Positions 6,811-45,353 of a DNA stretch of 52,905 nt are shown here, piece after piece. This stretch comes from an uncultured Eubacteriales bacterium (lineage in GTDB: Bacteria; Bacillota; Peptococcia; Peptococcales; SKKY01). Within the stretch, counting starts at the first letter, position 1; every line of letters begins with the position of its first letter. Location: the NCBI GenBank assembly GCA_964622305.1, contig CAZUPR010000003.1, forward strand, positions 1-52,905. The letters are read 5' to 3'. Both the position numbers and the translations under genes were made by a program. The notes under the pieces are model-generated. The model was not told the origin of the DNA. It saw only the letters and a list, made by a program, of their open reading frames with translations, and did not search any database.

Positions 6811-7695
6811 TTACACCTTCTCTTTCACGTTTTTGCCAAAGATTCCTGTAGGCCTGATTATCAATATAATAATCAGGATAAAAAATGCCACGGCATCCCT
6901 GTAAAGAGAGTTACCATATCCACTAACCATAGCTTCTATCAAGCCCAAAATTATTCCACCAGTAAAGGCTCCGGGGATAATGCCAATTCCTCCTAAAACC
7001 GCCGCAACGAAGGCTTTTAGGCCCGGCATTACACCCATTAAAGGAGAAATAGAACTGTAATAAACCCCTACCATAACTCCAGCTGCTCCAGCCAAGGAAG
7101 AACCTATAGCAAAAGTAGTTGAAATTGTCCTGTTAATATTAATTCCCATAAGAATAGCAGCGTCCTTATCAAAGGCAACTGCTCTCATAGCTTTTCCAGT
7201 TTTAGTAAAATGAACAATGTATTGTAAAAGCAACATAAGTAAAATTGTAACTATCATTATAGTCAGCTGTTGATGACTTATGTAGGCCTTAGTCCCGAAA
7301 AGAGTAATCTTACCTTTAGACAATATTTTTGGAAAAACCCTGGGTTCTGGTCTTAAGAAAAACACACTAGTGTATTGAAGAAAAAAAGATACCCCAATAG
7401 CTGTTATTAAAGCTGCTATTCTGGTTGAATTTCTAAGTGGTTTATAAGCTATTTTTTCAATAGTTACTCCCAAGAGAGCGCAGCCAATCATAGCAATTAA
7501 CATGGCTGGAATAAAACCAACACCAAGAATGGTAATGGCAAAAAAGCCAATGTATCCACCTATCATGTAGATTTCACCATGGGCAAAATTTATCAATTTA
7601 ATAATTCCATAAACCATAGTGTAGCCCAAGGCAATTAAAGCATAAATGCTCCCTAAAGATAAGCCATTTACTACTTGCTGTAAGAAAACTTCCAT
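6811..7695 (-). CDS. livH: Branched-chain amino-acid ABC permease LivH
   Basis: MEVFLQQVVNGLSLGSIYALIALGYTMVYG N-terminus. I prefer ATG 7695 because the track start at 7740 would run through the livJ hairpin. Confidence 0.8.
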   Translation of the reverse strand: MEVFLQQVVNGLSLGSIYALIALGYTMVYGIIKLINFAHGEIYMIGGYIGFFAITILGVGFIPAMLIAMIGCALLGVTIEKIAYKPLRNSTRIAALITAIGVSFFLQYTSVFFLRPEPRVFPKILSKGKITLFGTKAYISHQQLTIMIVTILLMLLLQYIVHFTKTGKAMRAVAFDKDAAILMGININRTISTTFAIGSSLAGAAGVMVGVYYSSISPLMGVMPGLKAFVAAVLGGIGIIPGAFTGGIILGLIEAMVSGYGNSLYRDAVAFFILIIILIIRPTGIFGKNVKEKV

Positions 7696-7724
7696 ACAGA
7701 TACCATTCCTTTCGGAAAAATCAT

Positions 7725-7753
7725 AAAAAAAGGAGGGCACTTGTAGTCCCTCC
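7725..7753 (-). terminator. Intra-operon hairpin / partial terminator between livJ and livH
   Basis: On the minus strand, ggagggactacaagtgccctcc is followed by a T6 run (hairpin at 7732-7753). Confidence 0.45.
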
Positions 7754-7786
7754 TTTAAAATTTCAAGAATTTTGCATAATCAATGC

Positions 7787-8983
7787 TTATTTGGGATCAA
7801 TTGTTGCTACGTAGATTTGCTCACCAGCTTCGTTGTATCCAAGGATAACAGCTGATTTGATTGGGTTGTGTTGAGCGTCAAGAACGATTGTTCCTGTAAC
7901 TCCTTCAACGCCTTCAAGTTTTTCAAGAGCGTCTTTAATAGCTGCTCCATTTGTACCATCAGCAATTTCAATAGCTGCAGCTATCAAGTATGCAGTGTCA
8001 TAACCAAGAGCTGCAAATGATGGTGGCTCAGTACCAAATTTAGCTGTGTAGTTAGCAACAAAGTCAATTACTTTTGGACTTGTGCTTTCTGGTGAATAGT
8101 GGTTAGTAAAGAATGCATTTTCAAGGTTTTCAGGTGTGTTAACTTCTGCAAGTTTTACACCATCCCAGCCATCTGTACCAAGAAGTACGCCAGTGTAACC
8201 TAGTTCTCTAGCTTGGTCGATAATAAGAGAAACTTGCTCTTCGTAAGCTGGGATAAAGATTACTTCTGGGTTTTTGCTGATAATTTTAGTTAAAGTTGAT
8301 TTGAAGTCTTTGTCTTCAACAACAAAACCTTCAACACTAACGATTGATCCACCCATAGCTTCAAATGTTTGTCTGAAGGAAGCTTCAAGACCTTTTGAAT
8401 AGTCACTGTTGTTGTCAACATAGATAGAAGCTTTTGTTAAGCCCAGGTTATCTGCTGCGTATTGAGCTGCAACCTGACCTTGGAATGGGTCGATGAAGCA
8501 AGTTCTGAACATGAATGGACGTGTGTTGCCATTCTTTGGATCAACTGTTACATCAAGAGCTGTACCAGTTGGCGAAATTACAGGAACTTCAAATTCTTCT
8601 GAAACAGGAACTGTAGCAATCGCATTTGTTGAAGTAACAGGTCCTACGATTACTGATACTTTATCTTGTGATGCAAGCTTGGTTGAAATGTTAAGAGCTT
8701 CAGCACTGTCAGATCTGTTGTCATACTTGATAAGCTCAAGCTTCATGCCTTTAACTCCACCAGCAGCGTTAATTTCTTCAACAGCAAGTTCCATTGCGTT
8801 TGCAGCAGTAATACCATACTGTGCAACGTTTCCTGACAATTCAGCGTTTAGGCCAATCTTAATAGTTTCAGCCTTGTCACCGTTGTCTCCAGCGGATGGT
8901 TTGTTACCACCGCCACAGCCAGCAACCATAGTGATAGCAAATAACACTAAAATGAGGCCAGCTATGATTTTTTTACTCTTCAT
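7787..8983 (-). CDS. livJ: Branched-chain amino-acid ABC substrate-binding lipoprotein (LivJ/LivK family)
   Basis: Signal peptide with lipobox MVAGCGG. Type-1 periplasmic-binding-fold length. Heads the livHMGF genes. Confidence 0.8.
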   Translation of the reverse strand: MKSKKIIAGLILVLFAITMVAGCGGGNKPSAGDNGDKAETIKIGLNAELSGNVAQYGITAANAMELAVEEINAAGGVKGMKLELIKYDNRSDSAEALNISTKLASQDKVSVIVGPVTSTNAIATVPVSEEFEVPVISPTGTALDVTVDPKNGNTRPFMFRTCFIDPFQGQVAAQYAADNLGLTKASIYVDNNSDYSKGLEASFRQTFEAMGGSIVSVEGFVVEDKDFKSTLTKIISKNPEVIFIPAYEEQVSLIIDQARELGYTGVLLGTDGWDGVKLAEVNTPENLENAFFTNHYSPESTSPKVIDFVANYTAKFGTEPPSFAALGYDTAYLIAAAIEIADGTNGAAIKDALEKLEGVEGVTGTIVLDAQHNPIKSAVILGYNEAGEQIYVATIDPK

Positions 8984-34246: not shown

Positions 34247-34382
34247 TTCTGTCCTTCTTTCGAAAAAATATAAGTTGGATGAACAATTATACCATAAATA
34301 AAAAGAATGTGTCGTGAATAGACTTGGAATAAATTGGGTATTTTATTTAAGAGAAAGTATTTTGATTTTGGGAGGTTATAAT

Positions 34383-35135
34383 ATGAAATTATTAAACAGA
34401 ACGGCTTTTATCACCGGAGCTGGCTCAGGAATTGGCCGGGAAATTGCCCTTGCCTTTGCTCAGGCGGGTGCCCTGATTATTTCAGCAGATATAAATAAGG
34501 AAGCTGCGGAAGAGACAATGAATATTATTCAGGATTATGGCGGCAAGGCCATTGCTGTTGAGGTTGATGTTGGCGATTTTACCAGTTTTGAAAATGCTAT
34601 GAAAGAGGGCATGAAAGATTACGGTAAAATTGATATACTTGTAAACAATGCCGGTATTTTTGACGGAGATAATGATTTACTCTCAACCGATCCCGATGTT
34701 TTTTCCCGGGTGGTTGATGTAAACTTAAAGAGTGTCTATTATGGAATGAAACTTGTTTTAAGAAATATGGTCCGGACCCAAAGAGGAGTTATCATAAATA
34801 TATCTTCTATTGCAGGAATCAGGGGTGCTTTAGCAAGCCCGGCCTACACGGCTACTAAACATGGGGTAATTGGTTTAACCAAGGATGTGGCTGCCAAATA
34901 CGGACAATATGGAATCAGAGCCATTGCAGTCTGTCCTGGAACCATTGAGACTTCTATGACTAAAGATATTCTAAGCTTTCAGAATGAAGAAACTAAGGCT
35001 TTAATGAACTCTATCCCGCTAAAAAGAGCAGGTAAGGCCGAAGAAGTTGCTAAGCTGGTGGCCTTTTTAGCATCAGAAGATGCCAGCTATATAACAGGAA
35101 CAGAAATAATTATCGATGGTGGTATGACCATTTAA
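34383..35135 (+). CDS. Short-chain dehydrogenase/reductase (FabG-like)
   Basis: TGAGSGIG cofactor motif, NNAG, and catalytic YTATKHG (YxxxK). ATG 34383 follows GGGAGG. Confidence 0.8.
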   Translation: MKLLNRTAFITGAGSGIGREIALAFAQAGALIISADINKEAAEETMNIIQDYGGKAIAVEVDVGDFTSFENAMKEGMKDYGKIDILVNNAGIFDGDNDLLSTDPDVFSRVVDVNLKSVYYGMKLVLRNMVRTQRGVIINISSIAGIRGALASPAYTATKHGVIGLTKDVAAKYGQYGIRAIAVCPGTIETSMTKDILSFQNEETKALMNSIPLKRAGKAEEVAKLVAFLASEDASYITGTEIIIDGGMTI

Positions 35136-35208
35136 CATTTGGGGACGCAACATTTTATCTGATTTTAGAATGAGTGTAAAATCAGATAAAATGTTGCGTC
35201 CCCAAATG
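35136..35208. repeat. Palindromic intergenic element, copy 1 (long variant)
   Basis: Perfect 32-bp arms catttGGGGACGCAACATTTTatctgatttta / taaaatcagatAAAATGTTGCGTCCCCaaatg around the 9-nt loop gaatgagtg. Confidence 0.9.
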
Positions 35209-35221
35209 CAGAGGAGATTTT

Positions 35222-36265
35222 ATGGATAAGACAAAAAGAAAAAGAAATCTTTTTATTATAGGCTCCCTCCTCCTGGCCTTGACTGTGGTCGTTATTTTTT
35301 CAGTCAGCATAGGCCAGGCTGATGTGAGCTTTATGAAAGCCGCAAATATAATTGGCAGCAAGATTCCTTTTTTAAAAAGTATAAGTGACATCAGTGACGT
35401 CAAAGAAAGTCAGGAAACTATAATCTTAAAAATTCGACTGCCCAGAATTATTCTGGCTGCTTTAATAGGCATGGCACTGGCTGCAGTTGGGACTACCTTC
35501 CAGGGACTTTTAAAAAACCCCATGGCTGATCCATACATAATTGGTGTTTCTTCCGGTTCTGCCTTGGGCGCTGCCCTGGCTATCGTCTCAGGAATAAGCC
35601 TTACTTTTGGCTATTTTATGGTCCCTCTGTCTGCTTTTGCCGGAGCCCTGGTGAGTATTTTTACAGTTTATAATATTGCCAGAGTGGGCAATAAAATCCC
35701 CGTCTATAATTTACTTTTGTCGGGAGTGGCCCTCTCTTCTTTTTTATCGGCCTTGACCTCCCTGCTTATGATTTTAAATTCTAAAGAAACCAGCCAGATT
35801 CTTTACTGGATGTTGGGCAGCTTTTCTGGCAAAACCTGGGAGCACGTCCGTATAGCCCTGCCACTGATTGCCCTTGGGATTATCTCCCTCTATTTTTTTA
35901 CCCGGGAATTAAACCTTCTCCTCTTTGGCGAAGCAACAGCGCAGAACCTGGGAGTTAACGTAGAAAAAACAAAGAAAATTTTGCTTATCCTGGGTTCCTT
36001 TACTGTAGCCTCAGCTGTAGCCGTAAGTGGAACTATCGGTTTCGTTGGCCTCATTGTACCCCATGCCGTCCGCCTGGTAACTGGATCTGACCACAGAATT
36101 CTTCTGCCTGCTGCCAGCCTTGCTGGTGGCGTTTTTATGGTTTTTGCCGATACTATAGCCAGGACAATTTTAAGCCCGGCAGAAATCCCCGTTGGCATCA
36201 TAACTGCCCTTTTTGGTGGCCCCTTCTTTATCTATCTCTTAAAATCCAAAAAAACCATTGCTTAA
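35222..36265 (+). CDS. btuC: FecCD-family ABC permease (BtuC-like corrinoid/iron-chelate importer)
   Basis: 347 aa, about 10 TM helices. FecCD-type blocks RLPRIILAALIGMALA and GTIGFVGLIVPH. Confidence 0.75.
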   Translation: MDKTKRKRNLFIIGSLLLALTVVVIFSVSIGQADVSFMKAANIIGSKIPFLKSISDISDVKESQETIILKIRLPRIILAALIGMALAAVGTTFQGLLKNPMADPYIIGVSSGSALGAALAIVSGISLTFGYFMVPLSAFAGALVSIFTVYNIARVGNKIPVYNLLLSGVALSSFLSALTSLLMILNSKETSQILYWMLGSFSGKTWEHVRIALPLIALGIISLYFFTRELNLLLFGEATAQNLGVNVEKTKKILLILGSFTVASAVAVSGTIGFVGLIVPHAVRLVTGSDHRILLPAASLAGGVFMVFADTIARTILSPAEIPVGIITALFGGPFFIYLLKSKKTIA

Positions 36266-36280
36266 AAGGAGCCTTTACTT

Positions 36281-37558
36281 ATGACTGATCATCTGAATAT
36301 TAAAGAGCTTTATTTTTCTTATTCTCAGGATAATATTCTGCAAAATATAAATATTTCTATCAAAAGAGGCAGCTTTATAAGCATTGTTGGTCCCAATGGA
36401 TCTGGTAAATCTACCCTGCTTAAAAATATTGCTAAAAATCTCCGGCCAAATTCCGGGGAGATTTGGTTTGAAACCCTTGACCTTCTGAAGATGACCCCCT
36501 TGGAACTGGCAAAAAAAATGGCAGTTGTCCCCCAAACCTTTAATATCGATTTTCCTTTTTCTGGCCTGGATACCGTCCTAATGGGGCGGACCCCTTTTCT
36601 GAAGCGCTTTCAAGCAGAGACAGATAAAGACTATGCCCTGGCAGAATGGGCAATGAAACTAACTAATACCTGGCATTTTCGTGACAGGTCTGTAACCCAG
36701 CTATCAGGTGGCGAGCTGCAAAGGGTTATCCTGGCCCGGGCTCTGGTTCAGGAGCCAGAAATTATTCTTTTGGATGAACCCACTGCCCACCTGGATATCC
36801 AGCACCAAATGGAGCTTCTAGAACTTTTAGAAAGCCTCAACAAGACCAGTAACCTAACTGTGATTGCTGTCCTCCACGATCTTAACCTGGCCAGCCAATT
36901 TTCAGATGAAATTATTATGCTTAAAAATGGGCAGATTTTTGCCCAGGGTCCAACAGATCAGGTTCTAACTGCCGGAAATATCAGAGAAGTTTATGGCATG
37001 GAGGTTCTTCTGGCCGAAAATCCTCTTAATCAAAAATTAAATATCATCCCTCTGGCCCGCAGTAAGGAAGCCGAGAGTCAAAAGAAAAATTTTAAAATAC
37101 ATATAATTTGTGGTGGCGATAGTGGTGCCTACCTGATGGACCGGCTTTTGCAGATGGGCTACCAGCTTTCTACTGGAGTTCTTAATATTGGGGACACCGA
37201 CTGGACCAAAGCAAAAAAGGCCGGGATAGAGCTTGTTGAAGAGGCTCCCTTTGCCGGCATAAGTCAGGCAAGCAAGGAAAAAAATTTAGCCGCCATTTTA
37301 ACTGCCGATTTGCAGGTAATTACTCCTGTCCCCTTTGGTCTGGGAAATCTGGCCAATCTGGAAGCAGCTCTGGAGGGTGCGCAAAAAGGAATAAAAACTG
37401 TTATTATAAAAAACAATGACCCACTTTTAAACCAGGATTTCACCCATGGGAAAACCGAAGAAATTTTAGCAGCTTTAAAGGATGCTGGCGCTATTTTTGC
37501 TGACGATTATGCCCATTTCTTTGATCTCCTTAAGGAGGAAGCTGATGATGGAGAATAA
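36281..37558 (+). CDS. btuD: ABC ATPase (BtuD/FepC-like) fused to an uncharacterised C-terminal domain of about 165 aa
   Basis: Walker [28 protein letters not shown] and H-loop LHDLN lie within aa 1-255. The extra region is aa ~262-425 (KIHIICGGDSGAYL...). Confidence 0.75.
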   Translation: MTDHLNIKELYFSYSQDNILQNINISIKRGSFISIVGPNGSGKSTLLKNIAKNLRPNSGEIWFETLDLLKMTPLELAKKMAVVPQTFNIDFPFSGLDTVLMGRTPFLKRFQAETDKDYALAEWAMKLTNTWHFRDRSVTQLSGGELQRVILARALVQEPEIILLDEPTAHLDIQHQMELLELLESLNKTSNLTVIAVLHDLNLASQFSDEIIMLKNGQIFAQGPTDQVLTAGNIREVYGMEVLLAENPLNQKLNIIPLARSKEAESQKKNFKIHIICGGDSGAYLMDRLLQMGYQLSTGVLNIGDTDWTKAKKAGIELVEEAPFAGISQASKEKNLAAILTADLQVITPVPFGLGNLANLEAALEGAQKGIKTVIIKNNDPLLNQDFTHGKTEEILAALKDAGAIFADDYAHFFDLLKEEADDGE

Positions 37559-38318
37559 AATAAGCAGCCCCAAAGGCCACATCCTGATTCGAAATGAAAA
37601 TAATATGGCCCTGCTTTTTTCCAGAGAGATGCTGACTCTCTCCACTTCACAACTAAATGGCGGCATGAGTAAAAATCTTAAGAGCATTTTTAATCACCAG
37701 CTGACTGATTGGATTGAAAGTGTTGATCAGCTGCCGGAAAAAAGTGTGACTTCTTTTTTGGCTGGAAAAGCGAGGGATCTGGGCCTGGTGGCAGTCGAAA
37801 GCTCAGGTCTTATGACCACAGCATCTATGAAAAATGCCTCAGTGAAATTTTATGAGGATCAGGATTTTTCTTTCATCCTGGTGATTTCAGGCGGGGCAGG
37901 GGTTAATGCCCTTCGTTCCGGCGATCCTCCAACCTACAGAGAGACTGGCCCAAATGATTTTCAAGCTTTGGGAGGGACCATCAACATCATCCTCCTCCTG
38001 GAATTTGCCCTTCCACCAGAGGCCCTGGCAAGACTTGCAATTATTATAACCGAGGCAAAAACTGCAGCCCTCCTTGATTTGGGAATAAAAAGTTCTGTCA
38101 GTCTGGAGCCGGCTACCGGAACAGGCACTGATGGTTTTATTTTGACCTGTCACCAGGAAGATGATAAAGTTTTTACAGATGTTGGCAACCATTCTTTTTT
38201 GGGCAGCACTATCAGCTCTTATATTAAAGAAGGAGTTGCCTCTACCTTAATTAAGGAAAAAAATGACTATATAGAAAGAGAAAGGAAAAAAAATCATGCA
38301 AATAATGAAGGAAAATAA
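37545..38318 (+). CDS. cbiZ: Probable adenosylcobinamide amidohydrolase CbiZ
   Basis: 257 aa from ATG 37545 (RBS AAGGAGGA). LTLSTSQLNGGMSKNLKSIFNHQL and LLLEFALPPEALARLAIIITEAKTAALLDLGI resemble CbiZ-family blocks. Embedded in btuCD...btuF. Confidence 0.55.
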   Translation: MMENKISSPKGHILIRNENNMALLFSREMLTLSTSQLNGGMSKNLKSIFNHQLTDWIESVDQLPEKSVTSFLAGKARDLGLVAVESSGLMTTASMKNASVKFYEDQDFSFILVISGGAGVNALRSGDPPTYRETGPNDFQALGGTINIILLLEFALPPEALARLAIIITEAKTAALLDLGIKSSVSLEPATGTGTDGFILTCHQEDDKVFTDVGNHSFLGSTISSYIKEGVASTLIKEKNDYIERERKKNHANNEGK

Positions 38319-39255
38319 AGTGAAAGAAAATAAAGGCAAAAAAATCCAGGCCAGCCAAAGGAAAATTTTTGCAATCGGCCTCCTCCTCACCCTGCTTATC
38401 TTTTTGTTGGCCGGATGTTCCGGTAAGCAAAAGGAAGCAATTGAAGGAGAGCGAGTCTTTACCGACTTTTTTGGCCAGCAGGTTGAAATAAAAGAAGCTC
38501 CCCAGAGGATTCTTTCCCTCTCTCCTGCCGCAACTGAAATTCTTTTTGCCCTGGGCCTTGATGAAGAAATTGTAGGCACCACGGACTATTGCAGTTACCC
38601 AGAAGCCGCCCTTAGCAAGCCTAAAGTTGGTGGTTTTACAAATCCCAATATGGAAATAATTGTGCAGGCAGAGCCGGATTTGATTCTTCTTGCCTCCGGA
38701 GTCCAGACCGAATATATTGAGGCTTTTAAGAAATATGGCCTGACAACCTTTGCTCTTGATGCTCAAACCATCGACCAGGTTATAGAAAATATCTTGCTGG
38801 TGGGAGATATTACGCTCAGACAAGATGAGGCCAAAATAATTACTGATGATATGCTTAGCCGCATCAACTTTGTCAAAGAAAAAACCCAAGGTCTGGAAAA
38901 GCCCCTGGTCTTTTTTGAAGTTTGGGATGATCCCCTGCTTTCAGCCGGGCCCGAAACATTTATTGCCGATATTTTAGAAATTTCTTCAGCAGAAAACTTT
39001 GCTGCTGATGCAAAATCTGATTATCCTCAAATTAGCCTGGAGCTCCTTTTAGAGAGAGATCCAGATATTTATATGGCCATAGACCATAAAAACAATCTGC
39101 CCGCCGGCGAAAGACCAGGTTTTCAAAATTTACAGGCAGTACAAAATGGTAAATACTTTCGTATTGAAGACGACCTGGTAACCAAGCCAGGCCCCAGAGT
39201 TATTTTAGGCCTTGAAGAAATAGCCAGGAACATCCACCCCGACATCTTCAACTAA
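38296..39255 (+). CDS. btuF: Periplasmic-binding-protein lipoprotein (BtuF-like, class 8 SBP)
   Basis: Lipobox LLAGCSG; ILSLSPAATEILFALGLDEEIVGTTDYC and PDLILL blocks typical of BtuF/FhuD-type SBPs. The start is 38296 or 38305. Confidence 0.75.
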   Translation: MQIMKENKVKENKGKKIQASQRKIFAIGLLLTLLIFLLAGCSGKQKEAIEGERVFTDFFGQQVEIKEAPQRILSLSPAATEILFALGLDEEIVGTTDYCSYPEAALSKPKVGGFTNPNMEIIVQAEPDLILLASGVQTEYIEAFKKYGLTTFALDAQTIDQVIENILLVGDITLRQDEAKIITDDMLSRINFVKEKTQGLEKPLVFFEVWDDPLLSAGPETFIADILEISSAENFAADAKSDYPQISLELLLERDPDIYMAIDHKNNLPAGERPGFQNLQAVQNGKYFRIEDDLVTKPGPRVILGLEEIARNIHPDIFN

Positions 39256-39260
39256 CACCC

Positions 39261-39300
39261 GGGGACGCAACATTTTGTCCGGACAGAATGTTGCGTCCCC
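39261..39300. repeat. Palindromic intergenic element, copy 2
   Basis: GGGGACGCAACATTTTGTCC GGACAGAATGTTGCGTCCCC has one T/C difference giving a G-U pair. The right flank aaatgca is shared with copy 1. Confidence 0.9.
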
Positions 39301-39330: not shown

Positions 39331-39885
39331 ATGCTAAACCGTGAAAAAGCAATGGAACTTTTACTTAAATACAATCAAAACCAGGCTCTTATTAACCACG
39401 CCCTGGCTGTAGAAGCTGTCATGAAATATTTTGCCCAAAAATTTGACCAGGATGAAGAATATTGGGGTTCAATAGGACTCATCCATGACCTGGACTATGA
39501 GCAGTATCCTGAAGAACACTGTCAAAAAACCAAAGAAATCCTGGAAGCTGAGGGCATAAGCCAGGAAGTTATCAGGGCAATTATGTCCCATGGCTGGAAG
39601 CTTTGCACAGATGTAAAACCTGAACATATTATGGAAAAGGCTCTTTATGCTACTGATGAATTAACCGGCCTTATTAATGCAACTGTTCTAATGAGGCCAG
39701 AAAAAAGTATCGAGGGCTTGGAAGTAAAATCCGTGAAGAAAAAATTTAAATCCAAAGGCTTTGCAGCTGGAGTTAACAGAGATGTAATTTTAGAAGGTTG
39801 CCAAATGCTGGATATGGATCTTGATGAAGTTATTCAGTGGGCCATTGATGGTATGAAAGAAGAAGCCCAGGCCCTGGGCCTCTAA
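39331..39885 (+). CDS. HD-domain phosphohydrolase (COG2316-like)
   Basis: 184 aa; H..A and IGLIHDLDYEQYPEEH metal-binding motifs. Confidence 0.7.
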   Translation: MLNREKAMELLLKYNQNQALINHALAVEAVMKYFAQKFDQDEEYWGSIGLIHDLDYEQYPEEHCQKTKEILEAEGISQEVIRAIMSHGWKLCTDVKPEHIMEKALYATDELTGLINATVLMRPEKSIEGLEVKSVKKKFKSKGFAAGVNRDVILEGCQMLDMDLDEVIQWAIDGMKEEAQALGL

Positions 39886-39897
39886 TCTGCATCCGGG

Positions 39898-39959
39898 CAC
39901 TAACATCCGGGGACGCAACATTCTGTTCGGACAGAATGTTGCGTCCCCGGATGTTAGTG
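39898..39959. repeat. Palindromic intergenic element, copy 3 (extended arms)
   Basis: cactaacatccGGGGACGCAACATTCTGTtcggACAGAATGTTGCGTCCCCggatgttagtg. The arms are about 29 bp with a tcgg loop. Confidence 0.9.
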
Positions 39960-40005: not shown

Positions 40006-43000
40006 ATGGAAACTATTTTTAAATCTGAGGCTTTAAGGGCTAATCTGGAGCAAACCCGTGAGGACCCCACCCAGCTTGACCAGGATTTTATTTGCTTCAT
40101 TAATCTGTCGGAAGATTTTTATGGCATCAATTCCCGGGCTAAAGAATTTGCCCAGGAGTATCACCACAAGTATGCCAATTTTGATTTCATCCTGGAAACA
40201 CTCCACCACATAACTGTATCAGATATCTGGTTTTACAAGGATCTCCCTCAAAGCAGGCAGGCCCTTCTTTTTATGGTCAAAATTTTTGAAGACCTCTTTC
40301 TCAAAAATCTTTCCTCTCCCCAAAGAGAATTTCTCATTAAAATGATTTTTAAATTCATAGACAAACTGGCTAAGGATCAGGAAAAAGCTGACCTTGAGAC
40401 AATCACCCTTGCTCTTAATCTTTTAAAAAAGCAAGCGGAAGCTGACCCCCAACTTTTTATTTATAATAACAACTATCTTAAAACCTACCTCTATCAGGCC
40501 CAAATCTTGCCCGAAATCAAGGATGAAATCCTGGAATTTACCCGTAAAATCATGCTTATGAGCCTGGACTACTGGCAAGATAGTCTGGATTTACAAAAAA
40601 TACCCAAAATTAAGCCAAACTTTTTCACTTCTATTAAAGAAAATATCCAAGAGGCTTCCGACTGGAAGCAACTTATTAAAAATCCATTTTTTCCTGATAT
40701 TGCCAACTATTTAAGAAAAGTTGCCGATGAACCCAGCCAGCCAATCGACAAATTCAACTACCTTTTTTACATAATGCACCTGCCCGGCATGAGACAGCTG
40801 GAAAACCACCTCCTCTATGACATCAACCGCCTGCTTAAAGACATCATTAAAGACATGGACCAGGAGGAAGTCGCCCGCTTTATCGATGTAACCTTTCGCC
40901 TCTTTAAAGAATTTAAAGACCAGCACACATCCACCATTTTGGACTGCATTCAAACCCTGGGCCGGGAAATTTCTGCCAGCGGCGATTTGGCACTAATTAA
41001 TCACCTAATAGCCAACATCATTAGCTTTGGCTTTATTTATCCTGGGCAAATTACCATTTCCAGTGACTGGCAGGTAGAAAACAATAAGAATCATGTCAAA
41101 AATATCCGGGTCTGGCTTGATCTGATTGAAAGCTCACCAAAAAAATTTAAAACCCTTCTGGCCGCCCTGATTGTCAATTTGAAAATGGCCGGTATTTTTA
41201 TTTCTGATACCGATCTTTTCCAAAGAGATATAAGCAAACTTTTAAACTCAGAAATTACACCCATGTACAAGCAAATAAAAAAACTTGCCCGGATTTTTCC
41301 TGTTTATTTCAAGGAAGTTGGAGCCGAGGGCAGGCTGCGTGAGGTCACCACTGCTATGGACGAAATCTGTGGCAGACGGGATATTCTTATGCATTTTATC
41401 AGAAAGCAGGTTCATGCTGAGAGCAATAATACACAAATTTCCCTGGCTGAAAAAACTGCCGATTTCTGGCTTAATGCCGATGCAAAGAATCTTCTTCCTT
41501 TTCTACCAGCCGATGTGCAAAAAACCATCAATCCTAACTCAAAATATTTTAAGGGGCTCCACAAAATCTTGCAGGATGCTTCTTTTCACTTCCAGACTAA
41601 TCATCTGGGCCTTTTAAAACTGCCCGAAAAAGAAATTACAGATTTTATAAGTAATCACCCACTCGATAATAAGGCCGACAAAAAAAGGCTGCTCAACTTT
41701 TTTGAGCTCTACAAGCTTTTAGTGGAAAAATATTCCCTGGAATCCGCCGATCTTCTGACCACCATGGAAGAAGCAGGCTTTTTCTCTGAGGAAGATATGC
41801 ATAAAAGCCGGGAACTTTTCGCCCAGCCCAGCCCAAAAAATCAATTAAGACATCTCTTCAAACTTATGGGTCAGCTCAAAGAAGTTATTTGCGACCCCAA
41901 AGAATCCCAAGCCTTTGAAAGCATCTACTATAAAAGGCACATTGCCGTAGGAATTCCTTCTATGTATGGACAATATTCCGAGAAAAAATTTGAAGCTCTG
42001 GGCTTAACCTATCGAATGGAGAGAGCCTCCTCCCAGTTAATGGCCGAGATTCTTGCCGATTTGAAATTGGACTACATCACAGCAAAAACTTTGCGCTCGA
42101 TTTATGAAATCCTGGAACTATTTAAAGAGGGACTTCTTTTGGACGGAGTGGAGAATCAAGACTTTAACTCCAATCTTGACATGTTTTATTTTAGCCTCAA
42201 CTCAACAAGCTTCACCCTAAATCAGTACATGAACATCTTCCGATTTATGGCCCTCAACATCAAAGAAATTATTAATGAGTACTTCATGCGCTTTTACGAC
42301 GAAGCTCTGGAGCAAATTATCCCCCACCTCTTTGGGCCGGGCCAGGAAATTCTTTTAAAAAAATCTGAAGAGTTTTACCGGGAAGTCCTCTCTCTCTCCT
42401 TTCTCATTCAGGAGCTGGATTTCTTTGTCACCCATTGCATAAATAAATTATCAGCCCTTTTAGAAAATTATCCCGAGGATTACATCAGCAGAATGATGAC
42501 CTATAATCCAGACTTGGCCATTACCTCTTTTAATGAGGACTGCCCGCAAATGGACAACAGGGTTTTTCTTGGGGCCAAGGCCTATTACCTAAAGAAGCTG
42601 ACCTCCTATGGTCTGCCCGTTCCACCCGGTTTTATTATTACCACAGAGGTTTTTCGCCACAGGGATATTGTGCTCGGCCATCCTCACATGAGCTTGGAGT
42701 TAGATAAGTCAATTAAGAGGGAGATAGAAAAGCTCCAGGAGCTTTCCGGCAAAAAGTTTGGCAGCCCGGTGGACCCCCTCTTTTTGTCGGTCCGTTCTGG
42801 AACGGCTATCTCCCTGCCCGGGGCTATGAATACTGTTCTCAACGTAGGTATTAATGACGAAATCGCAAAAAAAGTCAGCAAAAATCCCCAGGAAGCCTGG
42901 ATGATCTGGGATTCTTACCGGCGGTTTATTCAAAGTTGGGGTATGATTAATGGTATCGAAAGGTCAGTTTTTGACAGGCTGATTAATGATTTTAAAACCC

Positions 43001-44031
43001 AGCACCATATTGATAAAAAAGCAGAGTTTTCTGCCAGCCAAATGGAAAATCTGGTAGGAGAATACAAAAAGATTCTGGAAAAAGAAGGAATTGAAATCCA
43101 CCAGGATCCTTATCAGCAGCTGAAGATGTCCATCAATATTGTTCTTGATTCCTGGGATACAGAAAGAGCCAAGGCCTACCGGAAACACTTGCACATAGCC
43201 AAAGAATGGGGAACAGCTATTATTGTCCAAAAAATGGTCATGGGTAACAGGTCCGACAAGTCGGGCTCCGGGGTTGTATTCACCCACAATCCCAAGCTCA
43301 GCAAAGCCGGCATCAACCTCTATGGTGACTACACCCCCCGCAGTCAGGGCGAGGACATCGTAGCCGGTCTGGTCCACCCCCTGCCTGTATCTGACAGCCA
43401 GCTCCTGGAGTCCACAAGTAAGCTGGCTGATCAGGGAGCCCTGCAATCCAGCTTCCCGGAAATCTACGGCCAGCTCATGGAATACGCCAAAGAGCTCATC
43501 TATGACCACGGTTTCAGTAATCAGGAAATCGAGTTCACCTTTGAGTCAGAGAAGGCTAAGGACCTCTACATCCTGCAAACCAGAGAGCAAATCATCAGTG
43601 GCAAGGAAAAAACTCCTGTTTTTTGTGAGATTCCAGACCAGATGAGTCTCCTTGCTCAGGGCATCGGCATCGGCAACGATTGCCTGAGTGGCAGAATTGC
43701 CTTTGACAGGGAGGGTCTTTTGGAGCTTAAAAAAATCTACCCTGAGGATAAGCAGATTCTAGTCAGACCAGATACCATCCCCGATGATATTCCCGATATC
43801 CTCATATGTGACGGACTCATCACCAGCCGTGGAGGGGTAACTTCGCATGCGGCAGTAACCGCCGCCAAACTTAATAAGGTTTGCATAGTCAACTGTAAGG
43901 AACTGCTTGTCAATGATCAGGAAAAAACCTGTAAAATTGGGGAGCATAATCTTCAATATGGTAGTATAATTTCTTTAGACGCTAAAAGTGGCTCTATTTA
44001 TCTTGGCGATTACAAAATAATCTATATCTAA
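40006..44031 (+). CDS. Large PPDK-related phosphotransferase: unknown N-terminal ~850 aa, PPDK ATP-grasp domain and phosphohistidine swivel domain, with no PEP/pyruvate TIM barrel
   Basis: From about nt 42560, the blocks GLPVPPGFIITTEVF, DPLFLSVRSGTAISLPGAMNTVLNVG, WDSYRRFIQSWG, WGTAIIVQKMVMGN, GSGVVFTHNP, QGEDIVAG and EIEFTFE..LYILQTR align by eye with pyruvate phosphate dikinase. The catalytic-His block is TSRGGVTSHAAV (His codon 43846-43848). The ORF stops right after the swivel domain. Confidence 0.8.
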   Translation: METIFKSEALRANLEQTREDPTQLDQDFICFINLSEDFYGINSRAKEFAQEYHHKYANFDFILETLHHITVSDIWFYKDLPQSRQALLFMVKIFEDLFLKNLSSPQREFLIKMIFKFIDKLAKDQEKADLETITLALNLLKKQAEADPQLFIYNNNYLKTYLYQAQILPEIKDEILEFTRKIMLMSLDYWQDSLDLQKIPKIKPNFFTSIKENIQEASDWKQLIKNPFFPDIANYLRKVADEPSQPIDKFNYLFYIMHLPGMRQLENHLLYDINRLLKDIIKDMDQEEVARFIDVTFRLFKEFKDQHTSTILDCIQTLGREISASGDLALINHLIANIISFGFIYPGQITISSDWQVENNKNHVKNIRVWLDLIESSPKKFKTLLAALIVNLKMAGIFISDTDLFQRDISKLLNSEITPMYKQIKKLARIFPVYFKEVGAEGRLREVTTAMDEICGRRDILMHFIRKQVHAESNNTQISLAEKTADFWLNADAKNLLPFLPADVQKTINPNSKYFKGLHKILQDASFHFQTNHLGLLKLPEKEITDFISNHPLDNKADKKRLLNFFELYKLLVEKYSLESADLLTTMEEAGFFSEEDMHKSRELFAQPSPKNQLRHLFKLMGQLKEVICDPKESQAFESIYYKRHIAVGIPSMYGQYSEKKFEALGLTYRMERASSQLMAEILADLKLDYITAKTLRSIYEILELFKEGLLLDGVENQDFNSNLDMFYFSLNSTSFTLNQYMNIFRFMALNIKEIINEYFMRFYDEALEQIIPHLFGPGQEILLKKSEEFYREVLSLSFLIQELDFFVTHCINKLSALLENYPEDYISRMMTYNPDLAITSFNEDCPQMDNRVFLGAKAYYLKKLTSYGLPVPPGFIITTEVFRHRDIVLGHPHMSLELDKSIKREIEKLQELSGKKFGSPVDPLFLSVRSGTAISLPGAMNTVLNVGINDEIAKKVSKNPQEAWMIWDSYRRFIQSWGMINGIERSVFDRLINDFKTQHHIDKKAEFSASQMENLVGEYKKILEKEGIEIHQDPYQQLKMSINIVLDSWDTERAKAYRKHLHIAKEWGTAIIVQKMVMGNRSDKSGSGVVFTHNPKLSKAGINLYGDYTPRSQGEDIVAGLVHPLPVSDSQLLESTSKLADQGALQSSFPEIYGQLMEYAKELIYDHGFSNQEIEFTFESEKAKDLYILQTREQIISGKEKTPVFCEIPDQMSLLAQGIGIGNDCLSGRIAFDREGLLELKKIYPEDKQILVRPDTIPDDIPDILICDGLITSRGGVTSHAAVTAAKLNKVCIVNCKELLVNDQEKTCKIGEHNLQYGSIISLDAKSGSIYLGDYKIIYI

Positions 44032-44053: not shown

Positions 44054-45304
44054 GTGGAAGAAATACTAAAAAGAAAAAACATCCTGGGTATTAACGGGGC
44101 AGGAAGGATTGGCAAACTCACCCTCTGGCACCATCTAAATATCAAACACTTTGATTCTTTTGTTTTAAATGCTGGCCGTAAGGTGGGGAATTCTTTTGAA
44201 GATATGGTAAATTACCTGTTGACCGACTCAACCTATGGAAACCTGGATACTTTTTTGTATGGCTATTCAGGGAAAAAAGCTCAGGTGGAAATCCTCAGTC
44301 AGGAAGAAGGGATTTTTTCTGTGGATGGAAGGGAAATTAAAATTCTATCTACGGCCAGAAATCCTAAGGATATCAACTGGCTCAAGGAAGATGTTAAACT
44401 AGTTGTCGACTGTACAGGTGCTTTCTTAGATCCAACCCTGCCTGCCGATGCTCCCAAAGGAAGTTTGCGTGGGCACATTGAAGCTGGGGCTGAGAAAGTT
44501 GTTGTCAGTGCGCCCTTTAAAATTAAGGATAAAACTCTTAAGATTCCTGAAGATGCCGGTATGTTTGTCTACGGCGTCAACCATAACAAGTATAATCCTC
44601 ATAAGCACCACATAATTTCTGCTGCCAGCTGCACCACCACTGGCCTGGCCCATATGGTTATGCCTCTTTTAGAAGATGGGCTGACCAAGGAAATTCTTAC
44701 TGCTTCCATGTCTACAGTTCACGCAGCTACCAACAACCAAAATATTTTGGATGCTGTTCCTGGCGAGGGAAAAAGTGATTTGCGGCGAAACAGGTCTACC
44801 TTTAATAATATTATTCCAACCAGCACCGGAGCTGCAGTTGCTTTAGAGGAAATTCTTCCGGAAATAAAAAAGATCGGCTTTATGGCCGATTCAGTGCGGA
44901 TTCCAACAACTACTTCTTCTTTGATTGCCCTTAACGTTACCTTTAAAACTAAAATTGATCCCGATACTGGCGAGCCAGAAATCAACAGAACTTATATCAA
45001 CGATATTTACCAAAGGGCAGGGCAGGGAGCCCAAAAGGATATGCTGGTCTTTAGCCAAAAGCAAAATGTTTCTGCTGATATTATTGGCTACCAGGCAGCT
45101 GTGGTTATTGAAGGCGTGGAGACCCACACCCGGACAGGCTTTATTCCTATTCAGGCTCATGTCCTAAAAGAACTCGGCCTGGACAGCCAGCTGGATATAA
45201 ATATCCCAGTAACACACGCCAAGATTTTTGGCTGGTATGATAACGAGTTCGGCAGCTATGTAAACTTTATGACCAAGCTTGTCACCTACATCGACGCCAA
45301 CTAA
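44054..45304 (+). CDS. Glyceraldehyde-3-phosphate dehydrogenase-family protein (long, 416-aa paralogue)
   Basis: GTG start 8 nt after GGAGG. GINGAGRIGK NAD motif, catalytic SAASCTTTGLA (Cys codon 44630-44632), STVHAATNNQ, NIIPTSTGAA and WYDNEFGS. Confidence 0.75.
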   Translation: MEEILKRKNILGINGAGRIGKLTLWHHLNIKHFDSFVLNAGRKVGNSFEDMVNYLLTDSTYGNLDTFLYGYSGKKAQVEILSQEEGIFSVDGREIKILSTARNPKDINWLKEDVKLVVDCTGAFLDPTLPADAPKGSLRGHIEAGAEKVVVSAPFKIKDKTLKIPEDAGMFVYGVNHNKYNPHKHHIISAASCTTTGLAHMVMPLLEDGLTKEILTASMSTVHAATNNQNILDAVPGEGKSDLRRNRSTFNNIIPTSTGAAVALEEILPEIKKIGFMADSVRIPTTTSSLIALNVTFKTKIDPDTGEPEINRTYINDIYQRAGQGAQKDMLVFSQKQNVSADIIGYQAAVVIEGVETHTRTGFIPIQAHVLKELGLDSQLDINIPVTHAKIFGWYDNEFGSYVNFMTKLVTYIDAN

Positions 45305-45306
45305 TT

Positions 45307-45353
45307 TGCATTTGGGGACGCAACATTCTGTCCGGACAGAATGTTGCGTCCCC
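45307..45353. repeat. Palindromic intergenic element, copy 4 (between convergent genes)
   Basis: tgcatttGGGGACGCAACATTCTGTCCGGACAGAATGTTGCGTCCCC followed by tttgttt. This is a perfect 40-nt palindrome. The left flank is the reverse complement of the aaatgca flank of copies 1 and 2. Confidence 0.9.

Follow-up and report, generated by a model that had tools for sequence, protein, structure and literature searches.

A barrel-less relative of pyruvate phosphate dikinase with a new helical domain, paired with a GAPDH paralogue in anaerobic bacteria

Swivelling-histidine dikinases combine an ATP-grasp domain, a mobile phosphohistidine (His) domain and an acceptor module, which in pyruvate phosphate dikinase (PPDK, EC 2.7.9.1) is a TIM barrel that binds phosphoenolpyruvate (PEP) and pyruvate. 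Here we analyze a dikinase-like gene (40006..44031, plus strand) in a stretch of 52,905 nucleotides (nt) from an uncultured Eubacteriales bacterium (contig CAZUPR010000003.1), referred to below as the window. The encoded protein lacks the barrel and begins with a novel helical N-terminal domain (N-domain), and its gene is followed by one for a long paralogue of glyceraldehyde-3-phosphate dehydrogenase (GAPDH). Known phosphotransfer hardware is combined with what appears to be a new acceptor domain and with a new obligate partner, in support of a reaction that we put forward as a proposal. We consider it very probable that this is a functional swivelling-His dikinase that serves an acceptor other than pyruvate and works with a dedicated GAPDH. 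Lower glycolysis is regarded as fully mapped, and a conserved, apparently enzymatic module of two genes at the GAPDH step in energy-limited anaerobes (about 600 or more species) suggests that central sugar metabolism includes a step not described so far.

In the PPDK of C. symbiosum (1KBL/1DIK), the swivelling His domain and the ATP-grasp domain with its PPDK-specific helical subdomain are homologous to those of the window protein, and both proteins probably carry out the first two partial reactions, in which ATP + Pi -> His~P + AMP + PPi (Pi, phosphate; PPi, pyrophosphate). The window protein differs in that the TIM barrel and the second linker are missing and 846 amino acids (aa) have been added at the N-terminus, so that the PPDK order of ATP-grasp, His and acceptor domains is replaced by acceptor module, ATP-grasp and His. 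Membership of EC 2.7.9.1 is supported by the ATP-grasp and His domains but not by the barrel (Pfam PF02896), which is absent, nor by the score against the NCBIfam PPDK equivalog TIGR01828, which is below the cutoff. The known mechanism of PEP synthesis is not available to the window protein.

VadK (Rv1127c), a protein of about 490 aa with no extra domain, autophosphorylates with ATP and Mg2+, associates with methylcitrate-cycle enzymes of M. tuberculosis and is confined to Actinomycetes (PMC13400623). It is likewise a PPDK derivative without the PEP/pyruvate domain that has kept the ATP-grasp domain and the catalytic His. Features that set the window protein apart from VadK are the large conserved N-domain, the pairing with a GAPDH and the occurrence in anaerobes of several phyla. 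The 534-aa truncated-PPDK model NF004531, which probably represents the VadK type, scored 281.2 bits against a cutoff of 456, and the two-domain architecture of about 490-534 aa is not that of the window protein. A full-text search found no literature on this dikinase family, and the VadK paper is silent on it (PMC13400623).

Other relatives join the two catalytic parts to acceptor domains for substrates other than pyruvate. Rifampin phosphotransferase (RPH), PigC/HapC and the two-component HpeHI or phenylphosphate-synthase type share the ATP-grasp domain, the swivelling His domain and such an acceptor domain, and are often misannotated as PEP synthase (PEPS) or PPDK (PMC4844700, PMC12167813, PMC13534948); the fold of the RPH acceptor domain was also without a structural homologue (PMC4844700). 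They differ from the window protein in their PEPS-like ATP-grasp domain, alpha/beta acceptor domains, domain order and lack of GAPDH pairing, and scores of 25 bits against NF041857 (cutoff 999) and 21-30 bits against the PigC/RedH models place the window protein outside the RPH type. Glucan, water dikinase (GWD) is a very large dikinase of about 1,400 aa in which the N-terminal 1,000 or so residues define the acceptor and the His domain pivots between sites, and it illustrates how freely the superfamily permutes the order of its domains (PMC13553574). Its N-terminal part is made up of carbohydrate-binding modules plus a central domain, its domains run acceptor, His and ATP-binding, and it acts on starch in plants and algae (PMC13553574). 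The domain order of the window protein differs from those of PPDK, RPH and GWD. With an ATP-grasp domain, a mobile His and a distinct conserved module on one chain, it belongs to the swivelling-His dikinase superfamily.

The PPDK-like half of the protein

An uninterrupted open reading frame (ORF) is present on the plus strand of the window from 39997 or 40006 to 44031. A GGAGGG ribosome-binding site lies 8 nt before the ATG at 40006, and the alignment with homologues begins at residue 1 of the product that starts METIFKSEALRANL; we therefore take the gene as 40006-44031, encoding 1341 aa followed by a stop codon. Pfam recognizes two domains and no others: PPDK_N at aa 896-1125 and, at aa 1247-1329, the PEP-utiliser mobile domain. 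In an HMMER comparison with PDB sequences (E = 6e-78), the PPDK-type ATP-grasp nucleotide-binding domain (aa 849-1212; 42550..43641, plus strand) aligns with residues 15-356 of C. symbiosum PPDK, and the swivelling phosphohistidine domain (aa 1248-1336; 43747..44013, plus strand) with residues 422-510. The collinearity with PPDK that the initial annotation had recognized by eye is thus borne out, with its start at nt ~42550 rather than ~42560. The catalytic His had been placed in the motif GGVTSHAAV, which spans aa 1276-1284, and the alignment agrees: His1281 (codon 43846-43848) corresponds to PPDK His455. The other residue equivalents are K858=K22, R930=R92, E1174=D321, E1176=E323, Q1191=Q335 and R1193=R337.

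The protein ends 5 residues past the His domain, ahead of the second linker and TIM barrel of PPDK. A PEP-utiliser TIM-barrel signature, for which we used the pattern that we take to be PROSITE PS00742, is absent from a six-frame scan of the whole window, and because the GTG of the partner gene lies only 22 nt past the stop there is no space for a hidden barrel. Pfam, the PDB alignment and the scan therefore concur with the earlier observation that the ORF stops where the barrel should start and that none is encoded nearby.

The score against TIGR01828 is 372.7 bits, under the curated cutoff of 843.45, because only profile positions ~10-340 and the His domain are present. Among NCBIfam models the protein matches PPDK at E = 3e-111, versus 3e-19 to 6e-23 for PEPS, and the C-terminal 490 residues look like a functional PPDK front end, clearly descended from PPDK and not from PEPS. 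Conservation was evaluated over 48 full-length representatives (49 sequences in the alignment), with identity down to ~25%. His1281, K858, R930, E1174, E1176, Q1191 and R1193 are conserved in at least 95% of them, so the catalytic His and ATP-grasp residues have not been lost in orthologues.

A structural model of aa 331-1341 (pLDDT 83, pTM 0.69), the second of two, was aligned by Foldseek to PPDK structures 1kbl and 1dik with a root-mean-square deviation of 3.4-3.9 Å over ~540 columns at 31% identity; the fit to 2r82 and 1vbg is 13-14 Å. The modelled His domain sits on the ATP-grasp domain, which is the PPDK conformer of 1kbl/1dik. A His domain docked on the N-domain was sought in this model, and the ATP-grasp-engaged conformer that came out is uninformative on the acceptor site. 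RPH and HpeI match the second model remotely (E 5e-5 to 1.5e-4, TM ~0.2), via the ATP-grasp/His part. By homology and conservation, the protein is a PPDK-derived swivelling-His dikinase, in which the ATP-grasp domain could load His1281 with phosphate.

A conserved helical domain and the family that carries it

Upstream of the PPDK-like half, the first 846 aa contain 12.8% Leu, 8.9% Ile, 8.0% Lys, 7.8% Glu and 7.4% Phe. An AlphaFold2 model of aa 1-846 (pLDDT 84, pTM 0.74) has about 40 helices and one beta-hairpin. Composition and model agree with the earlier description of a region of about 850 aa rich in Leu, Lys, Phe and Glu and all-helical, the single hairpin apart. Pfam gave zero matches to the N-domain at E<=10, and no NCBIfam model matched within it, the partial PPDK/PEPS-type matches coming from the C-terminal half only. 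A profile of 30 N-domains found no meaningful match among PDB sequences (the best was a designed binder, E = 0.027). A Foldseek search of the PDB with the N-domain model returned HEAT/ARM-like solenoids, which we rejected as homologues since the resemblance is generic (TM 0.14-0.20), and RPH was not among the matches. Thus, neither Pfam, the PDB profile nor Foldseek assigns the region to a known family. PADLOC defence models matched neither the dikinase, the GAPDH paralogue nor the upstream HD gene.

The statement that the region has no motif did not hold: DTDLFQR, GAEGxLR, RKQxHxESNN and YYKRHxAxGIPSxYGxY are strongly conserved, and occur in no described family. A subfamily of about 1,400 aa overlaps the window protein only at query residues ~230-844, which therefore defines a variable helical head (aa 1-230; 40006..40695, plus strand), not found in that subfamily, and a conserved core (aa 231-846; 40696..42543, plus strand), the putative acceptor- or partner-binding domain. 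The core, a new conserved helical domain of about 620 aa, belongs to no Pfam family, and the solved structures that were searched include no relative of it. Outside the ATP site, the N-domain has the most striking conservation of the whole family. Strictly invariant residues of the N-domain are D401, R445, D452, R466, K467, H470, K575, Y576, K643, H645, S652, R792 and D805, and W355, H363, D459, E638, R644, Y657 and E659 are nearly so. About 20 residues, mostly charged, are at least 95% conserved, and 17 invariant positions are common to the 49 sequences, in which mean column identity is 32%.

The two segments of the core with the highest conservation are predicted to be mobile. The GAEGxLR loop (aa 435-445; 41308..41340, plus strand) is invariant in sequence and has low pLDDT at ~436-440 in both models. 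The sole beta-hairpin of the N-domain (aa 637-658; 41914..41979, plus strand) carries ExIYYKRHxAxGIPSxYGxY, and its tip (641-654) is invariant with pLDDT < 50 in both models. This loop and the hairpin tip are the only low-confidence stretches within an otherwise confident core. Loops that are invariant yet predicted to be mobile resemble substrate-gating loops, and the hairpin is a candidate for either substrate gating or docking. The N-domain looks catalytic, more than a mere scaffold, and we infer that its core has the acceptor role.

Searching with the N-terminal 846 aa retrieved 1,641 clusters of proteins (90% identity); nearly all of the best 120 matches are 1,338-1,369 aa long and contain PPDK_N and the mobile His domain. 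When 1.8 billion representatives at 50% identity were searched exhaustively with HMMER, 451 clusters emerged, with full-length members of 1,335-1,540 aa. Relatives are encoded in at least 587 stretches of a collection with one genome per species; these stretches represent seven phyla, all anaerobes. Carriers among the Bacillota are Syntrophomonadaceae, Peptococcaceae, Anaerovoracaceae, Acetobacterium, Alkalibacter, Sinanaerobacter and Oscillospiraceae; among the Desulfobacterota, NaphS2, Desulfobacteraceae and Geobacteraceae; and among the Bacteroidota, Bacteroidales, Lentimicrobiaceae and Marinilabiliales. Further carriers belong to Cloacimonadota, Sumerlaeota, Calditrichales and Dehalococcoidia. 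In a census based on Pfam, PPDK_N was present in all 33 divergent representatives, the mobile His domain in 32, hemerythrin in two and the TIM barrel (PF02896) in none.

Source records label members of the family as 'pyruvate phosphate dikinase', 'PEP/pyruvate-binding domain-containing protein' or 'hypothetical'. Of these, the first two mislead, since they name the very domain that is absent, and this widespread misannotation, corrected here, can yield false PPDK calls in metabolic reconstructions. Labels of the PPDK type could hint at a damaged gene, namely a PPDK that errors in assembly or sequencing have cut short, or a pseudogene joined to upstream sequence to which it is unrelated. We give that reading virtually no credence, and the conservation data refute it: length and domain content are shared by >1,600 clusters at 90% identity (451 at 50%), the barrel is missing from every one of the 33 representatives and its signature from the window, the active-site residues are invariant, and a conserved partner begins 22 nt past the stop. 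A frameshift that hides the barrel, a possibility raised in the initial annotation, is contradicted by the recurrence in other genomes of both the ~1340-1365-aa length and a stop followed by the GAPDH gene, in addition to the census.

In two members, P0182 (1540 aa) and P0178 (1455 aa), a hemerythrin domain (PF01814) is located N-terminal to the helical domain. At the locus of one hemerythrin-containing member (L164:1166-5788) the next gene encodes an SH3-domain protein, and there is no GAPDH. These fusions suggest sensing of O2, iron or redox state in one branch of the family. A call consisting of the N-domain only (P0111, 827 aa, L165:6001-8484) ends 92 nt from a contig end and may be either a variant in which the gene is split or the product of a sequencing error.

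The GAPDH paralogue and a proposed bypass of phosphoglycerate kinase

The partner gene (44054..45304, plus strand) encodes a long GAPDH paralogue of 416 aa. Its GTG start lies 7 nt past an AAGGAGG sequence and 22 nt after the dikinase stop, as had been noted before, and the product is GAPDH-like by both Pfam (Gp_dh_N and Gp_dh_C) and NCBIfam (TIGR01534, 300.4 bits, below the 367.2 cutoff). We aligned 117 unique long paralogues with canonical GAPDHs. The Rossmann GxGxxG motif and the catalytic Cys149 and His176 are kept in 117/117, and the Ps site (Thr179, Arg195, Arg231) and Pi site (Ser-Cys-Thr, Thr208-Gly) are 100% conserved, as is Arg197. The column of the NAD-specifying Asp32, at the end of beta-2, contains Ala, Val, Thr, Ile or Leu (Ala in the window paralogue) and an acidic residue in none of the 117; an invariant Gly-Arg follows directly. 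Under the rules for Rossmann folds, loss of the NAD-specifying Asp with a following Gly-Arg is the classical NADP-type change. This points to acceptance of NADP(H), and hence to a probable reductive role for the paralogue. The long paralogues also have about eight conserved family-specific insertions, including a 24-residue HTRTGF... segment and one in the S-loop. As regards membership of type I GAPDH, the catalytic and anion sites are present, but the TIGR01534 cutoff is not reached and Asp32 is lacking.

The two genes occur together whichever of them is used as bait. With the dikinase as bait in species genomes, the long paralogue (58-71% identity) is found 19-270 nt downstream in about 48 of the 62 loci with room for it; with the GAPDH as bait in metagenomes, the dikinase is immediately upstream on the same strand in 71 of 77 loci. 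A divergent subfamily of 1,405 aa also has a GAPDH-type gene next downstream. The synteny of dikinase and long GAPDH, which the earlier work had put forward for checking, thus holds in both directions. In a mirror-tree comparison, pairwise identities of dikinases and GAPDHs correlate with r = 0.93 over 87 unique pairs (permutation maximum, 0.13). The pair is inherited and transferred as one unit. Its cultured carriers include Alkalibacter mobilis and Sinanaerobacter chloroacetimidivorans, and no established genetic system was found to have the two genes side by side.

There is no adjacent GAPDH at the dikinase in L044, L046, L047 and L060 (Acetobacterium and a related metagenome-assembled genome) or in L069 (Dehalococcoidia). 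In the cultured species Acetobacterium wieringae, carbinolicum, bakii and malicum, a dikinase-like gene without an adjoining GAPDH follows an amino-acid-type ABC transporter. The neighbours at the GAPDH-less Acetobacterium and Dehalococcoidia loci are unrelated ABC transporters, a helix-turn-helix protein, CAT and a metallo-beta-lactamase.

ORF clustering over 82 loci identified no broadly conserved neighbour besides the GAPDH paralogue, and the other large neighbour 'clusters' turned out to be antisense ORFs within the two genes. Some recurrent neighbours were identified in subsets of loci. A canonical GAPDH of ~336-338 aa lies directly upstream of the dikinase in 14 loci, and the order canonical GAPDH, dikinase, long GAPDH is found in six (L058, L070, L135, L143, L144, L146). 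In L058 the canonical gene (6978-7994) stops 3 nt ahead of the dikinase start, and in L143, L144, L135 and L146 it is at ~860-1861. L148 (4877-5887) and L155 (2156-3166) have canonical and long GAPDH in tandem, with the dikinase absent. In 18 loci of two lineages (e.g., L008:14345-15943), a gene for SerA or for a 387-aa PGDH-like dehydrogenase closely follows that of the long GAPDH, and in four loci a glycerate kinase gene is immediately upstream, ending ~30 nt before. The gene order in L014 (6814-7968, 13769-14932) resembles a glycerate-to-triose-phosphate route. All of these recurrent neighbours act on glyceraldehyde-3-phosphate (G3P), 3-phosphoglycerate (3-PG) or glycerate, and so converge on a single metabolic node. 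The gene context showed no sign of defence systems, mobile elements or biosynthetic clusters.

The earlier suggestion that a phosphoryl group could pass from ATP via His~P to an acceptor other than pyruvate, set by the N-domain or by a partner, is supported: it follows naturally from the domain layout and has precedents in RPH, HpeHI, GWD and VadK (PMC4844700, PMC12167813, PMC13553574, PMC13400623). The link to the GAPDH paralogue proved very strong. We propose that the two genes form one operon and a two-enzyme module of lower glycolysis or gluconeogenesis. The ATP-grasp domain would take ATP and load His1281, presumably using Pi and releasing PPi as in the PPDK ancestor, and the His domain would swing on its single linker to an acceptor site in the N-domain core (aa ~231-846). 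The invariant cluster of Arg, Lys, His, Asp and Glu and the two invariant flexible loops suggest a small anionic substrate. Gene context points to 3-PG as a tentative candidate for the acceptor, with 1,3-bisphosphoglycerate (1,3-BPG) as the product that feeds the GAPDH paralogue; such a bypass of phosphoglycerate kinase (PGK) is possible, if short of probable. The step would be 3-PG + ATP + Pi -> 1,3-BPG + AMP + PPi, after which the labile 1,3-BPG would be handed to the co-translated paralogue and reduced with NADPH to G3P. The helical solenoid may clamp the GAPDH tetramer via the family-specific insertions and so channel 1,3-BPG. The full proposal, a '3-phosphoglycerate, phosphate dikinase' that replaces or supplements PGK, couples the interconversion of 3-PG and 1,3-BPG to ATP <-> AMP + PPi and channels 1,3-BPG to an NADP-type GAPDH, is more doubtful.

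In function, the module would presumably be analogous to PGK together with an NADP-dependent gluconeogenic GAPDH (Bacillus subtilis GapB), which we take to carry out the same conversion of 3-PG to 1,3-BPG and G3P. It differs in having no homology to PGK and in the proposed coupling, ATP -> AMP + PPi and not ATP -> ADP, and the paralogue differs from GapB-type GAPDH in its length, insertions and sub-cutoff score. A further analogy is the bypass of pyruvate kinase by PPDK and PEPS. The full phosphorylating-GAPDH active site and the NADP-type pocket together suggest the reductive direction. A rough calculation with standard free energies from textbooks would place the dikinase step close to equilibrium, at ~+5 kJ/mol in the forward direction, as opposed to ~+19 kJ/mol for PGK in the same direction. 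In reverse, the module would produce ATP from AMP + PPi, which would suit anaerobes that economise on PPi.

Several observations weigh against a PGK bypass. A helical solenoid of ~850 aa is much bigger than binding of 3-PG needs, and its fold resembles only protein-binding scaffolds (karyopherins, CAND1, SF3B1). Known acceptors in the superfamily are enolate or hydroxyl oxygens, and we know of no precedent there for transfer from His~P to a carboxylate to give an acyl phosphate. Acetobacterium, one Dehalococcoidia genome and some Bacteroidales have the dikinase without an adjacent GAPDH, and the adjacency of SerA and glycerate kinase is limited to a few lineages. The hemerythrin-fused members suggest sensing or regulation, and the apparent preference for NADP derives from one sequence position.

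The strongest rival is a regulatory kinase resembling VadK. Here His1281 would autophosphorylate, and the solenoid would bind the GAPDH paralogue or the canonical GAPDH and control its activity or assembly, by phosphotransfer to the GAPDH protein or by phosphorylation-dependent binding, with no small-molecule acceptor. We consider this unlikely, although a precedent exists in VadK, a barrel-less PPDK that autophosphorylates, binds two metabolic enzymes and tunes their flux (PMC13400623). The resemblance of the N-domain to protein-binding alpha-solenoids only, the eight or so conserved GAPDH insertions as possible docking surfaces, the hemerythrin sensor domains of some members and the tight co-evolution of the pair are all consistent with such a regulator. 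However, invariant charged residues (Arg, Lys, His and Asp, with Glu at >=90%) and flexible loops are more typical of a catalytic or ligand site than of an interface between proteins, and a dedicated regulator of 1341 aa in a 1:1 operon with a specialised paralogue would be unusual. The dikinases without an adjoining GAPDH in some lineages also argue against it. The PPDK-like half is closer to TIGR01828 (372.7 bits) than to the truncated-type NF004531 (281.2 bits); any similarity to VadK would therefore be convergent.

Alternatively, the enzyme could be a dikinase for another acceptor, such as glyceraldehyde, glycerate, another phospho-sugar acid, a non-glycolytic acid or a polymer, with the paralogue working on the matching phospho-aldehyde or acyl phosphate; this would be a new pathway and not a PGK bypass. 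Acceptor domains are swapped freely in the superfamily, for rifampin, phenols, glucans and prodiginine precursors (PMC4844700, PMC12167813, PMC13553574, PMC13534948), and the N-domain is large, like that of GWD. The substrate of the paralogue could also differ, given its TIGR01534 score of 300.4 against 367.2 and its many insertions, including that in the S-loop. We find this an improbable solution, however: complete conservation of the Ps and Pi sites argues for a C3 phospho-substrate like G3P or 1,3-BPG, the recurrent neighbours act on G3P, 3-PG and glycerate, and no biosynthetic-cluster, transporter or polymer gene is consistently adjacent.

If a PGK bypass does occur, it would be a new energy-coupling option for gluconeogenesis or PPi-dependent glycolysis in hundreds of anaerobic species, including syntrophs, acetogens, sulfate and metal reducers, Bacteroidales and Cloacimonadota. 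The module would represent either such an unrecognised reaction with AMP/PPi coupling or a GAPDH regulator of a new, phosphohistidine-based class. In both cases, models of flux and ATP yield would change for syntrophs, acetogens and anaerobic-digester communities.

Palindromes and other genes around the pair

The pair had been described as bracketed by two copies of a palindromic element, and these do flank both genes exactly. The element is a perfect palindrome of ~40 bp (GGGGACGCAACATTCTGT-loop-ACAGAATGTTGCGTCCCC) with four intergenic copies in the window, right after stop codons (35142-35202, 39262-39299, 39906-39951 and 45314-45353); the first is diverged and has a longer loop. Eight half-sites were observed, versus 0.05 expected by chance. 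Copy 3 (39906..39951, unstranded) is the upstream boundary of the two-gene unit and is probably the terminator hairpin of the preceding HD-domain gene. Copy 4 (45314..45353, unstranded), the downstream boundary, lies between the GAPDH paralogue gene and a convergent ABC ATPase gene and is a probable bidirectional terminator. The palindromes look like REP-like or terminator hairpins that are reused at operon boundaries.

The ORFs around the pair encode ABC-transporter, HD-domain and peptide-transporter proteins. A corrinoid- or haem-type ABC importer occupies 34314-39255, with an ATPase of 425 aa (36281-37558) and a BtuF-like binding protein (38296-39255); an HD/HDIG protein (39331-39885) comes next. 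Across other genomes, neither the importer genes nor the HD/HDIG gene are conserved beside the module. In Syntrophomonadaceae, the module is surrounded by a lineage-specific conserved block (L006-L011, L017, L018, L032 and L040). Upstream, this block encodes a NagB-like glucosamine-6-phosphate deaminase and two uncharacterised proteins, and an Npun_F2552/DUF362-like Fe-S protein is encoded between the long GAPDH and SerA.

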